Shown: piece after piece, positions 4,213-13,083 of the stretch
Layout of the letters: every line of letters starts with the position of its first letter
Position numbering within the stretch: position 1 is the stretch's first letter
NCBI RefSeq assembly: GCF_011745625.1
Contig: NW_027191473.1
Location: forward strand, 372,001-432,515
DNA from: Cladosporium halotolerans
Taxonomy: Eukaryota
Length of the DNA stretch: 60,515 nt
Direction: 5' to 3'
Translations under genes and position numbers: made by a program
The notes under the pieces: generated by a model
Told to the model about the DNA's origin: nothing
The model's database searches: none
Seen by the model: the letters and a program-made list of their open reading frames with translations, nothing else

Positions 4213-6940
4213 ATGGGAAGGAAGTACCTGGGCGGCTCCGGAGAGTCATTGACCGTCTGGATCTCAGTGTTGGTGATCTCTCAATGTGATCGTGTTGATA
4301 CACGCTGATGACAAGGTTCCATAGCGCGGCGTCCACGGTTCTGATCTTCTATGGATACGATGTACGTGAGACTTGCGAAATATCGCGCGCTCGATCCTAG
4401 TATGGCCGAAGAAAACCAGCAGTCGGATACATAATCGGATCTTGCCGCTGCTGTTGATAAGACCACCTGTCCAGGCAGACAATTCGCAGCAAGTTGATTG
4501 TTGGAACGGCTGGAAGGCGGGAGGACAAGGCCAAATACAAATGATCAGTGGTGATCGAGTATTTGAAGAGTACATGATGCTGACTGTTGCGTTTCTACAG
4601 CAAGGCACGCCTGTCGATATAAACGTCATTCCCGAGTGACCTTATTGACGTGATGATTGTTAGGCATTTTCGGAAATGTGATCATCAATGAGAACTTCCT
4701 GGAGACCTTCGGTAAGAGCTGATCTTCATTGCTTAATCACAAGTCTGTAGACACGCTGGGCTCGCCTCAGTCAGCAACGGGAGCCATCGTGTTCAGCCTA
4801 CTGTTTGCTTCTCAATGAGATGAAGGATCAGATTATATTAGTCTCCTCTTTACCGCCTTCAAGATCGACTTCCTACTCGGGCGAATGATTTTATATGGAA
4901 CATCGGACGAGAGATGTATCTTCTGGCAGGCTGCTAATAGTTATTCAAACAGGCCATCCATCGGCAAACACCCAGGGCACTATGACCTCAGTCTACAACA
5001 TCGGATGCTTCTTCGGAGCACTCAGCACGGTATTCACAGGAGATTGGCTGGGTCGACCCAAACAGATTCTCCTTGGTTCTACAGTCATTGCGATTGGCGC
5101 AGTCATTCAGACTGCCTCGTGGTCTGTCCCGCAGGTGAGGAGATCGTGCCGTTTATGTCGCAGCAAGACACCTTCTCATTTATTGCTAGATGATGGTCGG
5201 CAGAGTGGTTGCTGGATTGGGCACGGGCATGAATACTGCTACAGCAGGAGTAAGTCGTGATCGCATACTCCCACAAGGATGGACTTTGTTCATTAACATG
5301 AGGCAGGTCTGGCAAAGCGAGACTAGCAAGATGAGCAGTCGCGGCAAACTCGTCATTATCCAGATGGCCAACTGTATCACTGGATTCAGCATTAGCAACT
5401 GGTAAGCGACGAGTACCTCCTGTCGAATGCTTGAACAAAGAGATGTTGACGAAAACCCACCAGGCTAACCCTAGGCTTCTCTTTCGCTCCACGTGACATT
5501 TCCTGGCGATTCCCTCTGGCTTTCCAGGTCTTCTTTACGCTTTGCATTTGGGCCTTGTGCCCTTTCCTCCCCGACAGCCCCCGTCTGTTAATTCGCAAGG
5601 GCAAATACGACGAAGCACGAGAAGTTCTCGCGGCGTTGGAAGGCCACGGAGCAACGCCTGAGTCCGCTTCTGTCCAGGCGCAGTTCAACGTCATCAAAGA
5701 TATTCTCGACAGAGAGAATCTCAACAGCTTCACGTGGTGGCAGCTCGTGACCGGCCGTGGCCCTTCTGGATTGCTCCGACGCATGATTCTGGGGGCATTC
5801 ATGCAATGCATGAATCAGATAAGCGGTGAGTATCCGAAAAAAATGAGGAAATACCATTTTTCAATTTTTGGATGGCTCATAATGATACTACTAGGGATCA
5901 ACGTTACGAGCTACTATATGAGCTACATATTCATCACAGCTCTGGGCATCTCGGAGCTCCTAGCACGCATCCTCGCCGCCTGCGGATCCGTGGACTATCT
6001 GATTTTCGCATGCCTGGCCTACTTCGTCATCGAACGCTACGGTCGACGGAAGGTCATGATGTGCTCTGCTGCGGCTTGTTCGATCTGCTGGATCTGTATC
6101 GCGATCGCCACTGGTCTTACTGAGAAAGGAGGGAACTCGTATGTCCTCGGTTCGGTTGCAGTCGCGTTTTTCTTCGCCTTCTTCGCGAGCTTCGGAATGG
6201 GTGTACTTGGAATACCGTGGGGTGAGTTTCTGACGGTCAACCCAGGTTAGGTCTCCTTGCTAACAAGCATGCAGTATGTGAAAACCTCATCCTGCTGTAT
6301 GCGGCGCTTGCGGAACACCATAATGTCCACGGAGGGCTGGTTCTCGGCACAAAAAAATGCAGACGAAAAACCCGAACAAAGGCGCTGACATCTTACAGCT
6401 GTACCCAACCGAGATCAACGCCCTCGAAATGCGGACCAAGGGCGCCAGGTAAGCAAATCCACCGAACGCCCAATTCCCCAACCTCACTAACACAACAACT
6501 CCACCTCCCAGTCTAGCAATGGCAACCAACTGGATCTGCAACTACGCCGTCGTGCAAGCCACGCTCCCCGGCATCGAAAACCTAGGCTACAAGTTCTGGA
6601 TCGTCTGGGTAAACTCTCCCCCCCCCCCCCCGACCCCATTCCCTCCCCCTTTTGACCTACCTCCCACTAACACCCCCAGGCAACCATCTGCTTCTCCTTC
6701 ATTCCCATCACCTACCTCTTCTACCCCGAGACGGCCAACCGCACGCTCGAGGACATCGACCGCTTCTTCGAGACGGAGCCTTCGATCATCGTCTGCCGCA
6801 ACCGCTTGGCGACGCAGCTGTCCAGGCCGCAGGTGTACATCGAGCAGGACGAGGAGATTTTCCGGCAGAGCGAGAAGAAGGATGGCGCGGAGGGACATGT
6901 CACCGTTGTGGAGGATTTGAGGGAGTCTGGGAAGGTCTAG
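4213..6940 (+). CDS. MFS sugar porter (525 aa), 12 exons: 4213-4268, 4325-4361, 4601-4604, 4664-4711, 4953-5134, 5190-5249, 5307-5401, 5464-5825, 5895-6220, 6399-6448, 6512-6608, 6680-6940
   Basis: Spliced 1578-nt ORF restores the sugar-porter motifs FYGYDQG, GDWLGR, GRVVAGLG, WRFPLAFQ, PDSPR, QISGIN, ERYGRR, PWLYPTEI and FYPETANRTLEDID. The model needs a GC-AG intron and a stwintron. Confidence 0.88.
4601..4663 (+). other. 4-nt microexon (CAAG, 4601-4604) followed by a GC-AG intron (4605-4663)
   Basis: Upstream GCTGAC...TTCTACAG acceptor, AAG|GCACGC donor, TTGAC branch and TAG acceptor. Supplies the Q-G of the conserved GYDQG motif. Confidence 0.78.
6221..6398 (+). other. [D1,2] spliceosomal twin intron: internal intron 6222-6274 nested in the donor of external intron G6221+6275-6398
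   Basis: TGG|G[GTGAGT...GCTAAC...GCAG]TATGT...GCTGAC...ACAG|CTG. Removing the internal intron creates a GTATGT donor, and the final product reads PW-LYPTEI. Confidence 0.85.
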
Positions 6941-7100
6941 GTGGGCGGGGTTGGGCATTCCGTGTCGTTCGTGCCGCAGGATCTTCGACGCGATTGGGAA
7001 CGATGGGGTTTCGGAGCAAATGAAGTCTCGCTCTGCGAATGCGGTAGACTTGGAAGCTTGGGAGTCGTAGCTGATCAATCGAGTTTATTGCTCCGACGAG

Positions 7101-7310: not shown

Positions 7311-10300
7311 TCAAGCCTTCATCGTCTTCAAGAACCCATCCAGGTTAAACTCCTCCTCATACTGCTTCTCATCCCACAGCTCGCTCAGCTCATCCAAGAT
7401 CCCCTTCTTGCCCTTCTCCTTCACGTTCCCCTCCGCATCAACGGCATTCGACTCGTCGACCTCATTGCCCTTCTCCCCACCTTCCAGCGCAAGATTCGGA
7501 TCCGTCTCGCCGAGATTGAACAGATCCAAAATCTCGCCCGTCTCCATCGTCCCCAGCCCGGCGTTCTGCTGGTTGACGACGGTGGACGCGACGTCGATCT
7601 TGAAGCGCTGCAGATTCAAAATCTTCTCTTCGAGCGTGCCGCGCGTGACGAGGCGGTAGACGTTGACGACCTTCTTCTGGCCGATGCGGTGCGCGCGGTC
7701 CATGGCCTGCAGGTCCTTCTGCGGGTTCCAGTCGTGCTCGACGAAGATGACGGTGTCGGCGCCGGTCAGGTTGAGGCCGAGGCCGCCGACGGAGGTCGTG
7801 AGGAGCAGGCAGTCGATGCTGGGGTCGGAGTTGAAGCGGTTGACGATGTCCTGGCGCTTGGAGGCTTCGACGCTGCCGTCCAGGCGCGAGAAGGTGACGG
7901 AGGGGAGGAGCTTCTTGAGCACGGTCGTCTCGACCATGTCGAGCATTTCTTTCATTTGGCAGAAGATGAGCGCGCGGTGAGGCGAGACGGCTTGGTCGGC
8001 CGTGGGCACGGCGGAGGCGTCGCTGGGTTCGGCGCCGATGCCGCAGTCTACTAGGAGGTCACGCAGTGCTGTGAGCTTGGGTGCGTGGACGTGGTCTTTC
8101 AAGCTGGAGTTTTGCTTGGCTAGCAAGGCTTGCGTGGCTGCGTACTGCTTGTGGCCTTCCTTCATGACCAGAGCGGGCGAGTTGCAGAGCTTGCGCATGT
8201 ATTGCAGGGCCTGGAAGATGTGCGTCTTGGCTTCTTTGTCGGGCTGGCCGGCCATTTCCTGCAGCGCCTTGCCCTCCTTCTTCGAAAAATCGTCGAACAG
8301 CCTCTTCTGCAGGTCGCTGAGATCGCAGTAGTAGTTCTGAAGAATCTTAGGCGGCAGGTCGTTGAGCACCTCCTCCTTCAGACGGCGCAGCAAGAACGGA
8401 AGAACCTGCTTGTGGAGGGATTCAACCGCAAGCGCTCCAGCCTCTTGCTCCTTGGACGAAGACTTGGCAAACCTACTGGCAGCGATAGGCTTTGCGAAGC
8501 GATCCTGGAAAACCTTCTCGGTACCGAGGAAACCCGGCATCAAAAAGTCAAACAGCGACCAGAGCTCTAGGACATTGTTCTGAATCGGCGTTCCGGAGAG
8601 GATCAGACGGTGGTTGGCTACAAGGCGCTTCACAGCCTGCGTGACCTTGGCCTTGGGGTTCTTAATCAGGTGACCCTCGTCCAGCACGCAGTAGTTCCAG
8701 TTGATCGGCAACAAGACGTCGATGTCGTTTCTCGCGATCTCATACGAGGTGATGACAATGTCAGCAGTACCCAATTCATGGCGAACCTTGCCACGCTCTC
8801 CAGGAGGACCAGCGTACGCAACGGCGTGCAAGAAGGGCGCATAAGTGCGGATCTCCTGCTTCCAGTGGCCTGTAAGCGTCGGCGGGCAGATGATGAGCGA
8901 GCCCAAGCGGCGCTTGTCGGGCGCCTGAGTCTTTGCGAAATCTTCGGCGCGCATGTGGTGGTCACTGGCGACCATGCAGAGCGTCTGCAGCGTCTTGCCG
9001 AGACCCATGTCATCACAGAGCACACCGTGGAGATTGTAGCGGTTGAGGAAAGCCAGCCAGTTGACGCCGTCCTGCTGGTAAGAGCGGAGCTCGGCTTTGA
9101 TGCCGACGGGAATGTGGAAGGGCTCGACCTTCTTCGGGTCCAGCATCTGGGCAATGAACTTGCGCTCACGATCACGGCCCTCGAGCAGAGCTTGCGGGAG
9201 ACCAGGAGGGTCAGGGATACCAGCCTCGAGCGGCACAAGCTTGACGAGCGTTGCGAATGCAGTGGTCGCGATGAGACGCACGCCTGGGTCCGAATCGCTC
9301 ATGCGGCCAAGTACCGGCACCAAGAGGAAAATGACGTAGGGGAGGATGCCATCGCCCATGACCTGAATGAGATGGTAGATGCACTCGATCGCACCCTGGC
9401 GGAAGGCGACCTCGTGAGCGTTGTTGATAGGAGGCAGGACTTGCTCGACCAGCATGGTGAAGCCCTGCACGGTGATAACACTGCAAACACTGGCGAAGCA
9501 CTTAGCCGCCGTGTAGCGAAGGACAGCCAGCTTGCTTTGCAACGCCTTAGCAACACTGGGCAACAGCTCGAGCACCCAAGAGTGCAGAGCAGGATCGAGT
9601 GTCGCAACCAGAGCACGCAGAGTAGACATAGCATCCACAACCGCCTGTCCAAATTCGTTCTCCGGGTCCAGCAGATTCGAAGGCAGCTCGCCAGCGAAGC
9701 ACTCGCGAATAGGATCCTCAATGACAGAGCGCAGCTTAGGAACCTTGTTGAAGAGATCGGCTCCGAAGATCTGGCACAGCTGTTCAAGCGCATCCTTGGC
9801 GCCACGTCTGGTGATCTTAGCCTTCCTGACTTCGCGCTCGAACTTCGCAGCGTCGGGCCTGTCCTGGATGTCCTCGTCCTTCTGGAGGGAGAGGATGCCG
9901 GCTTCCTTGTCCGCGTTGGGGTGGAACTCGGGCGTCTCGCCGGTCTCCATGCAGCAGAACTTGACGAGGTTGCCGACAACCTTCTCGACCACCTTGTGGC
10001 GCTCTGTAGCGACCAGGTGAGCAACGAGCCCTGCGATACCGGCGGCGGAGCGGTGCTGGAGATCGGTGTTCTCCTCCTCCTTGACACCGTCCATGATACC
10101 CTTGATCGTCATCTGCGGTTTCTTTGGGACCTCACTGAAAGCGACCAAAGCGGTGGCGGCAGCAGACTTGATGCGCAGATCGCACACCCGCTTGGCGTTC
10201 TGAGCTTCCGCGATCGCTGCTTCAGCGTCGAGCTTAGCGTTGCTCAGGGCGTCAGCAGCGGACATCCGCTGCACGGTCGAGAGTGATTTCTTGAGCTTCT

Positions 10301-13083
10301 CAAAATCCGAGGTGACGATCTTCTCAGCGTCGGCAAGCGAGAAAGCGTTCTTACCAGCCTCAGCTTCACCTTGGCAAACAACGGCCAGAATGGGAAGCTT
10401 ATTTCCAGGGACGTGAGCCTGCTCCTGGAATGCGTTGATGAGCTGCTGGCACTGTGCTCTCGCAATGCGGAGGTAGCTTGTGAGGTCAGAGTAAAACGAC
10501 GGCCTGTCTTCCTCGACGAGACGCTTGAGGGTCTGAGTAGCATCTGTAGCGAGCTGATCGGGTTCTTTGGATGAGTTTGCGAAGTTTTCTAGAAGCATGG
10601 CTGTGAACAGCTGAGTTGTAGCGTAGGACGAGTTGAGCTGCGGCAAGAGCTGCGGCCCAAAGAAGGCCTGTCGCTCTTCGGCAGGCCAGAGGGAAATTGC
10701 TTTGCCGAGCGCTCGAGTAGCGACGATGCGGGACTTGATCATAACGTCTGTGCCGACGAGATCAACATCACCCTGCATGATGGCGGCATCGATGTTGTGC
10801 GATGCCTGCTGCGTCGGTACGACAGCGGTGGCGGCCTTTTCAGACCTCCTACGCTTCCTGGGCGGGTCGGCTCCATTGCTTGGAGAAGCGCGGTGGGCTG
10901 AGGCGAGTGGTGCGTAGCTGACGCCCGAGGGCTTAATGAAAAGAGTAGTGTCCATGGGGATCGGATGACGGCTGACGCCGATCGGGTGAACAGTAATGGT
11001 GACGAGAGATGTAGCATGAGGCTCGAACTCCGTTCTGAAGGCTTGCGGGCCCTTCGCGACCAGTCCGTCAGCAAGCGCATTCCAAACTTCAAGCGACAAT
11101 TTTGAGACGGCTTCGTTTCGTTCCACCAACAAGTTTTGGTAGACGAGGCGGAGCGCCTTGCCGTTGATCCATCCCTTGGTGTCGGCTCCGTCGATGTTGA
11201 TGAATGTCATCAGGGCGCGGAGAACAGCGGACCTGACACCGGTGATTGTGTGACGCAGGAAAGGATACAGGCGTGGCACGAGACGCTCGAAAGACTGTTC
11301 CTCATCCGTCGCAGCGTTCTTCTTCATCGCCTCCAGCACCTCGGGGAAGCTGCACAGCTTGGCAAGCAAGTCCATGACTGAGCCGGTGCTAGCGCTCAAG
11401 TCGTCGCTCAGGCTTGACAGACATTCCCAGACGACACTGATAAGATGGCTGAGTTCGCTTGATCGGACGTTGACGAATTCTTTGGCGACTGGAATCAACG
11501 TAGCTGCACTGACTGAGCGCACATCATCATCGGGATCACCGAGCCCCTTGATAACGCATTCCAACACGCCGTCCATCAATGAGGCATCTTGAAATAGAAG
11601 ATCCGTGCGAACGGCGACGAGGTACCTCATGCCAATCATTCCACCATGGCAGGCATGCCATGTCTTGGGCGATCGCTTGAGCTCCTTCTGCATCACGAGG
11701 CGGTAGAGAATGCGGTTTGCATCGTGCACAGACGAAGGCGGTAGATATTGCAGCACAGCGCCCATGGTCTGGCCGGCGGTCTCCCTAATCGGCGCAACGG
11801 CATTGTCGGAAACATAATCGGCGAAGCGGTCGAGCATGAACACACAGCAAATGCGACATGCTAGATCGTCCAGCCAGGCGCGGTTGAGCTGATCGTTCTC
11901 CGTTCGATTCTTGTCTGCTCTCCGTCCAGCGCCAGCACCGTGAACGCGCACAATCTCACGCAAGCCCATCGCTGCACCGTGACGGATCTCCCAAGTAGTA
12001 TCGAAAAGATCGACTGACAAGAATTCGCACAGGCGCTCAAAGGGCCACTCGTTGCCTTCTTCCTCATCGTCTGCGACCAGACTGGACTTCTCAGCAACGG
12101 GCAGACCTTTGAACTCCGACACGACCTTCGAGTCGTCGTCCCCACCCTTGCGATCGATGGAGAAATAGTCCGCGTTGCCGTTGCCGTTCGGCTCTTCCTT
12201 GATCTCCTGCTTCACCTCTGGCTCGACAGGGGTCTGTGCGACGCCGGCGGTGCTGCTTGTCCGCGAGCCGGCAAAGTCGTACTTGAACTTCTTGTTGTCG
12301 CGTTTGAGCTCGTCCTTTCTGCGCCGCTTCAGCGCGTTTAGCTGGCGCTTGCTCAGTTCGCCACCGCCCGAGGGCGTCTGCGGAGGCATGTCTTCGGGCG
12401 ACTTGACAGCGGCTTCTTCGGAGTGCGACATGGACGTTTCCAGGGTGGGCAGGCTAGGCTTCGAGAACGAGTTGGGGCGGACTGCTATGTCCTTTTCTTC
12501 CACCAAGTCGTCCTCGATGTACTCGCCACCGAGACCGAGACGTTTGACGAGGGATTTCTTCTGATGCATCAATCGTTCTGACGCGTTGAGGCCAGCGAGC
12601 TTGAAGTCGTATTGCTTGCCAGCACTGCCGAGGAGCTCCTTTCCGTAGGTCAGGATCGATTCGACGTCCAGGGTGGCGAGGGAGAGTTGGTCGGGATTAG
12701 TGGTTGCGGGCATGTCGGGGTCTTCCTTCTTGACGCCGTTTTCACCATTAGATTCGTCGGCCTTCACTTCCTCGAGTGTGGCGTTGGGATCGTATTTCTC
12801 CGCATGTTCGACGATACCGCCGATCGCCTTCGCGGCGGCGGTTCTTGTGTCCCATGACGGCGAACGAAGGTAGGGAACGACTCTGGTCAGGAGGTTGAAA
12901 AGTTCGTCCGGGTGAGCCTTTTGGACGTCGGCGAGTTGTTGTGCAGCGGTATTACGGATGAGCTGGGTGCTTCCAGTCTCGAGCAGGGTGACCAGTCGGT
13001 CAAGTCTGTCACGTGATGTCAGCATGGACGGTTACACCGCCGTCAGATTTGGTTGCACGACAAACTCACCGTGAAGTCGTCAT
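7311..13083 (-). CDS. MOT1: TBP-associated SNF2-family ATPase Mot1/BTAF1; intron 13006-13069
   Basis: MTTSR|LDRLVTLLETGST...AAQQLADVQK N-terminus, HEAT-repeat region, LCDDMGLGKTLQ, LDEGH, LSGTPIQN, QAMDRAHRIGQ. Confidence 0.97.

Follow-up and report, generated by a model that had tools for sequence, protein, structure and literature searches.

Sugar porter gene with an unusual intervening sequence

The DNA analysed here, referred to as the window, is a 60,515-nucleotide (nt) stretch of the Cladosporium halotolerans genome, and positions are counted from its first letter. Features in the window lie on the plus strand unless stated otherwise. At 4213..6940 it harbors the coding region of an STL1-like sugar porter of the major facilitator superfamily (MFS), comprising 12 exons and 11 intervening sequences and encoding 525 residues. 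One of the intervening sequences, at 6221..6398, has a length of 178 nt and the termini GG..AG, and is probably a [D1,2] spliceosomal twin intron (stwintron), that is, an intron whose donor is itself interrupted by another intron. It is located in phase 0 between Trp390 and Leu391. The upstream exon 9 (5895..6220; 5894-6219 in the contig pieces, one letter being ambiguous) ends with the residues GIPW, the last codon being TGG at 6218-6220. The downstream exon 10 (6399..6448) encodes LYPTEINALEMRTKGA plus two bases of the following codon and opens at 6399 with CTG TAC CCA ACC GAG ATC, which reads LYPTEI.

Within the 178 nt, two complete sets of splice signals can be recognized. The G at 6221..6221 would be the first nucleotide of the external donor, split from the rest of this donor by an internal U2-type intron of 53 nt (6222..6274) which is presumably excised separately. 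The sequence of the internal intron includes GTGAGT (6222-6227), GCTAAC (6259-6264) with the branch A at 6263, 11 nt from the 3′ end of the intron, and CAG (6272-6274). The remainder of the external intron (6275..6398), 125 nt together with G6221, starts with TATGT (6275-6279), which completes the donor GTATGT, and carries its own GCTGAC (6384-6389), with the branch A at 6388 and thus 10 nt from the 3′ end, as well as its own CAG (6396-6398).

The reading frame leaves a single way of removing this sequence. Only the cut of 6221-6398 joins TGG to CTG in frame. Cutting 6222-6398 (177 nt) leaves one G, and keeping G6221 and 6275-6296 as an exon adds 23 nt; both shift the frame. These two models had already been dismissed on the same grounds in an earlier note on this DNA, and when the sequence was re-read the arithmetic as well as every coordinate given there proved right. 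The note had also proposed the nesting described above. Seven AG dinucleotides inside the 178-nt piece were tested as internal acceptors, and this nesting is the only solution with a GT donor: T follows the AG at 6273-6274 alone, giving G plus TATGT, and a branch element lies 11 nt upstream of this acceptor. A nested solution via the AG at 6267, which is followed by C, was discarded; it needs a GCATGC donor and an acceptor just 4 nt past the branch A. At the five other internal AGs the next base is G or A, and these were discarded as well. A twin intron that can be spliced alternatively as [D1,2] or [A2,3], with either internal intron removed first, requires a G on both exonic sides; here 6220 is G and 6399 is C. 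Since the downstream exon begins with C, the alternative [A2,3] route is closed according to the rule given in PMC5587772.

In the mechanism which we propose, the spliceosome would first remove the 53-nt internal intron 6222-6274 by means of GTGAGT, GCTAAC and CAG. This would join G6221 to TATGT and so create the GTATGT donor of the 125-nt external intron, which would then be removed via its own GCTGAC and CAG, leaving TGG joined to CTG in frame. If the distal sites (6222..6398) were used in one step instead, a G would be left behind and the product would be frameshifted. The order of the two splicing reactions and the existence of the intermediate are what we infer from this arrangement.

No stable or symmetric fold was found in the element, its minimum free energy being -45.6 kcal/mol as against a mean of -46.5 kcal/mol for shuffled sequences (z 0.22). 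The element has no evident role beyond that of an intron.

Excision from RNA and competing explanations

Sequencing data allowed the junction to be read at the level of both DNA and RNA. Four of 23 indexed runs (X1, X3, X5 and X6) were compared as contigs over 4650-6950. The contigs of X5 and X6, which are two samples of one study, match the exons with no other letters and are spliced at eight places. One of the eight joints runs from 6219 to 6398 and leaves out 178 nt. One letter of this joint is ambiguous, which gives it the ends GG..CA or, shifted by one, GG..AG. In the latter placement it is exactly the mature junction from 6220 to 6399 that the earlier note had predicted. It is also the sole one of the eight joints without a possible GT..AG cut, the other seven (skips of 241, 55, 57, 62, 69, 63 and 71 nt) all allowing one. 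Both the DNA sequence and the exact 178-nt GG..AG excision in mature RNA are shown by these data.

The proteins of other fungi agree with this junction. Of the best 120 among 193 matched homologues, 114 have LYP or VYP immediately behind PW. Six homologues deviate: P0080 and P0101 stop at the W, P0105 carries an insertion of 22 residues between W and L, the stretch is absent from P0033 and P0085, and P0046 diverges ahead of it. The junction of W and L is required at the protein level.

These observations bear on the models in which the 178 nt are not removed as one piece. Two ordinary introns might surround a small in-frame exon (6275-6324 or 6275-6339, with donors at 6325 and 6340), or the locus might be a pseudogene. 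The frame after the internal intron is open over 6275-6516, and the GT at 6325 and at 6340 both stand in the right register. On the other hand, nothing from 6221-6398 is present in the RNA contigs, the donors GTCCAC and GTTCTC are poor, no residue separates W and L in the 114 homologues mentioned, and the spliced product reaches its full 525 residues without gaps relative to P0009, a protein of Cladosporium inversicolor. As the main product, the small-exon models are refuted by the RNA contigs, which likewise speak against the exon models that the earlier note had dismissed; we regard this explanation as highly improbable.

Equally improbable is an error of assembly or sequencing in the run of Gs, by which one G would be superfluous and the true intron an ordinary 177-nt GT..AG intron. 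The GGGG is a homopolymer, and the assemblies disagree on the length of the poly-C run at 6618, which shows that errors in homopolymers happen at this locus. However, a single DNA contig in each of X1 and X3 spans the compared stretch, and neither has an indel at 6219-6222, all four Gs being kept; the extra G as an assembly error, which the earlier note had named as a possible refutation, therefore fails as an objection. X1 differs from the window solely by one C fewer in the poly-C run; it is possibly the window's own source and was not counted as independent. X3 departs from the window by 9 substitutions, by an additional A behind 6321 and by a run at 6618 that is four C shorter, and is for this reason taken to be another strain. 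In its external intron remainder, the extra A behind 6321 is the only difference. Moreover, the RNA contigs skip 178 nt of DNA and not 177. It follows from the 178-nt excision in these contigs that both the assembly-error and the small-exon explanations are excluded for the main product. As a separate observation, the poly-C run lies in the last intron (6611-6630) and its length differs from that of the window by -1 in X1 and by -4 in X3.

A mature junction by itself cannot separate one splicing step from two. The 178 nt might accordingly be removed at once as a non-canonical GG-AG intron, cut one base 5′ of GTGAGT and without any nesting, and this would fit the fact that the intermediate was observed neither in the contigs nor in a protein search. 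U2 splicing very rarely uses GG donors, though, and a consensus GTGAGT is found just one base downstream, the one-step use of which gives a frameshifted product. Furthermore, the second set of signals stands exactly where the two-step route needs it. When the first 7 and the last 15 nt of the excised piece were fixed and the middle was shuffled 20000 times, an internal branch site, an acceptor and a T-donor came to stand in the right places by chance in 132 shuffles under a loose model (0.66%) and in 23 under a strict one (0.12%). Finally, GG..AG termini combined with nested signals are met again in four related loci, at a different site. On this evidence, removal in one step is unlikely, albeit less so than the two explanations above.

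Several points weigh against a twin intron at this site. The intermediate with the junction from 6221 to 6275 was not seen in the contigs, in which rare forms are dropped. A protein with the external intron retained was not found among longer proteins with the translation of 6277-6516 either (24 candidates scored, none reaching E 0.001), which is weak evidence and was given no weight in either direction. The records of X5 and X6 bear no RNA label, their RNA origin following from the eight spliced joints, and both spliced runs stem from a single study; the sample of X6 is, in addition, that of X1. When both strands of the window were scanned with a model of the [D1,2] motif, a single match resulted, which coincides with 6221-6398, but about 0.5 matches per window are expected from the motif alone (mean 0.54 in fifty shuffles), and the bare motif is therefore not significant. 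While the bare motif is weak evidence, the agreement of the element with the excision seen in RNA is strong evidence. Altogether we assign a probability of about 0.88 to the interpretation that 6221-6398 is a strict [D1,2] stwintron within a Dothideomycete gene for an STL1-like sugar porter.

The assignment of the gene is based on its predicted product. The 525-residue sequence was assembled by script from the RNA joints. Eight joints of the gene were read from the RNA-derived contigs, whereas the two most upstream junctions were placed with the help of homologues and a loose contig end and should be taken as predictions. The two exons flanking the element match the Pfam family Sugar_tr (PF00083) with 41.8 and 59 bits (curated cut-off 22.3). 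Five proteins were compared with the whole product: it shares 89.6% identity with P0009 over 518 residues with zero gaps, and 80-85% with four other Dothideomycete proteins. Over its full length it is collinear with proteins whose sources list them as sugar transporter STL1 or general substrate transporter. A search with exon 9 matched 193 longer proteins. The best 120 of these are fungal MFS transporters, many of which bear the same two source names, and the top matches come from Dothideomycetes (92-94% identity). Both the profile matches and the full-length collinearity place the predicted protein in the Sugar_tr family as an STL1-like member.

At the upstream end of the compared region, the RNA contigs have a loose end reading GAT CA ahead of 4662. 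It fits a micro-exon of 4 nt, CAAG (4601-4604), which would be flanked on its 5′ side by a 239-nt GT..AG intron (4362-4600) and on its 3′ side by a 59-nt intron (4605-4663) with the GC donor GCACGC. With this micro-exon the product reads YGYDQGIFGN, as in homologues; its joints lie outside the stretch that was compared with contigs. The neighbouring gene on the minus strand (7311-13031) has an open frame of 1906 residues with HEAT repeats, DUF3535, an SNF2-related domain and Helicase_C, a domain set which we take to be that of a Mot1/BTAF1-type ATPase associated with the TATA-binding protein.

Intron positions and a second twin intron in related loci

A scan of metagenome contigs yielded 73 related loci. 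The 45-nt stretch encoding GMGVLGVPWLYPTEI is resolved in 63 of them, and in six further loci PW is contiguous with LY, so that 69 of the 73 are resolved at the junction of W and L; L017 (truncated) and L045-L047 (without the motif) were left out. None of the 69 resolved loci has the twin intron of the window, and this element appears to be confined to close kin.

Among the 63 loci, 32 are intronless in the 45-nt stretch and 31 have one intervening sequence. Sequences with GT..AG ends are found at nt 41 (14 loci), nt 36 (three loci), nt 24 and nt 9 (two loci each), and at nt 35, nt 40 and nt 26 (one locus each, L010 for the last). Three loci (L041, L042 and L064) have a GT..GG sequence at nt 26, and four (L011, L016, L018 and L035) have an intervening sequence at nt 7 that allows GG..AG ends only. 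Together with nt 27, the position of the window's element, this makes nine positions of intervening sequences within 45 nt, namely nt 7, 9, 24, 26, 27, 35, 36, 40 and 41, and the cluster is unusually dense. The ordinary intron of L010 is located a single nucleotide from the element of the window. In addition, the protein P0015 hints at a further intron position between G and V.

The GT..GG sequences are a peculiarity of their own. In L041 (2812-2914), and also in L042 and L064, the Trp codon is interrupted at nt 26 by an intervening sequence of 103 nt. Its donor is GTAAGT and its branch element CTAAC, but its 3′ end is GG and not AG. There is no AG ahead of the conserved LYPTEI exon, and no nested solution fits. 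The protein models P0080 and P0101 end at the same W where this intron sits.

The four sequences at nt 7 represent a second [D1,2] twin intron (L011:1326-1473, L016:472-610, L018:2805-2945 and L035:2794-2970). No GT..AG cut is possible in any of them. They are located 20 nt upstream of the position of the window's element, after TGG, in phase 1 of the Gly384 codon (FGMG/VLG). In all four loci, a nested internal intron of 57-62 nt is followed by TTGGT or TATGT, with the branch elements in place. The two twin introns thus resemble each other in standing after TGG, in interrupting the same conserved stretch of the peptide and in their GG..AG termini. Their sequences are another matter: pairwise identity is 49-62% among the four elements at nt 7 and 34-44%, in a forced alignment, between these and the element of the window. 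In a tree of the exons, L016, L018 and L035 fall into a clade of their own, to which the window does not belong (L011, with a gapped alignment, was omitted). Judging from these sequence comparisons, we read the second twin intron as a probable case of independent origin.

The second twin intron seems to have left a trace in a deposited gene model. The Cladosporium allicinum protein P0103 has GMG followed by 27 residues and then GVLGVPW, and the insertion starts with WSH, as translation would give when splicing takes out the internal intron and leaves the external one in the message. Hence P0103 appears to be a concrete case of mis-modelling, in which the internal intron of the upstream twin intron was removed and the external one became 27 residues of protein. 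It lends indirect support to the suggestion of the earlier note that gene predictors are likely to mis-model the locus in the window.

Searches for the origin of the elements gave no signal. Neither the window nor the 73 related loci yielded a similar copy of 6221-6398; the best match elsewhere was 15 nt long. Compared with the nt-26 intron of L010, the internal and external introns of the window scored 10 and 9, with a shuffle maximum of 12. For the external introns of the upstream element, the score against the ordinary nt-9 intron of L019 was reached by 168 to 318 of 500 shuffles. A model of a one-nucleotide shift (PMC5587772) was considered and rejected, since an element that had lost either internal intron would retain one at nt 27 or 28 and not at nt 26.

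The 45 nt encoding GMGVLGVPWLYPTEI may be a recurrent target of intron gain in Cladosporium-like Dothideomycetes, with whole [D1,2] twin introns among the sequences gained. The idea, which we put forward as a tentative and rather doubtful one, derives from three observations: two twin introns unrelated in sequence lie 20 nt apart in separate clades, each after TGG; within the stretch, ordinary introns of relatives occupy six or seven more positions; and the ordinary intron of L010 is only one nucleotide away from the window's element.

Relation to known twin introns and significance

The [D1,2] architecture recognized by the earlier note had, as stated there, been established in Pezizomycotina before. 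Cases proven by reverse transcription PCR (RT-PCR) are published for Aspergillus nidulans and Trichoderma reesei (PMC5587772), and among them the stwintron in dhaoS of A. nidulans consists of 57 and 56 nt, its intermediate having been shown by RT-PCR (PMC5587772). A single Hypoxylon genome contains 117 [D1,2] stwintrons (PMC9024468), and 288 stwintrons similar in sequence are described from 14 Xylariales (PMC12403724).

The element of the window shares its main features with dhaoS and with the unique stwintrons of Hypoxylon sp. CO27-5 (PMC5587772, PMC9024468). One G precedes a complete U2 intron, T..G. behind the internal acceptor rebuilds the donor, and the external intron is equipped with a separate branch element and acceptor. 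If the distal sites were spliced in one step, a G would remain and the frame would shift, and the conserved peptide of a membrane transporter is interrupted. The sizes of the constituents, 53 and 125 nt here as against 57 and 56 nt in dhaoS, are also similar. Differences concern the gene, an STL1-like sugar porter, and the lineage, a Dothideomycete near Cladosporium. The element is furthermore strictly [D1,2] with a downstream exon starting with C, which sets it apart from the dhaoS and Hypoxylon systems. In dhaoS the intermediate was detected by RT-PCR, whereas here we infer the two-step order.

Sister stwintrons of Hypoxylaceae and Xylariaceae occupy intron positions which are not shared with relatives (PMC12403724), and so does the element of the window with respect to its resolved relatives. 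As in sister stwintrons and introner-like elements, the integration seems seamless, no duplicated flank being evident. A similar copy of the element was not found in the window or in the 73 related loci, and the stability of its fold does not exceed that of shuffled sequences. Membership in the sister stwintrons or the introner-like elements is not supported. The element resembles the "uniquely occurring" rather than the "sister" class of Hypoxylon (PMC9024468).

An earlier report of a twin intron in a sugar transporter was not found in the literature searched, in which supplementary tables were not covered. One review mentions both stwintrons and Cladosporium. The kind of element is known, and the case described here, with its support from RNA, is an additional member. 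A twin intron has reportedly been published in another Dothideomycete, Helminthosporium solani.

The knowledge of the splicing mechanism is not changed by this element. It adds, however, an RNA-supported [D1,2] case in a sugar porter of a Dothideomycete to a class which is documented mainly in Xylariales, Aspergillus and Trichoderma. It is also of practical relevance for annotation: standard predictors cannot yield a GG..AG junction and will probably truncate, frameshift or pad the protein, the padding of P0103 being an example at a sister locus. Moreover, the element and its dense neighbouring intron positions, together with the second twin intron that a sister clade has 20 nt upstream, form a compact comparative system for studies on intron gain and intron shift. 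If the conserved stretch is indeed a recurrent target, twin introns would arise or propagate outside Xylariales as well, and the locus would be a natural series on the formation of twin introns and the shift of intron positions.

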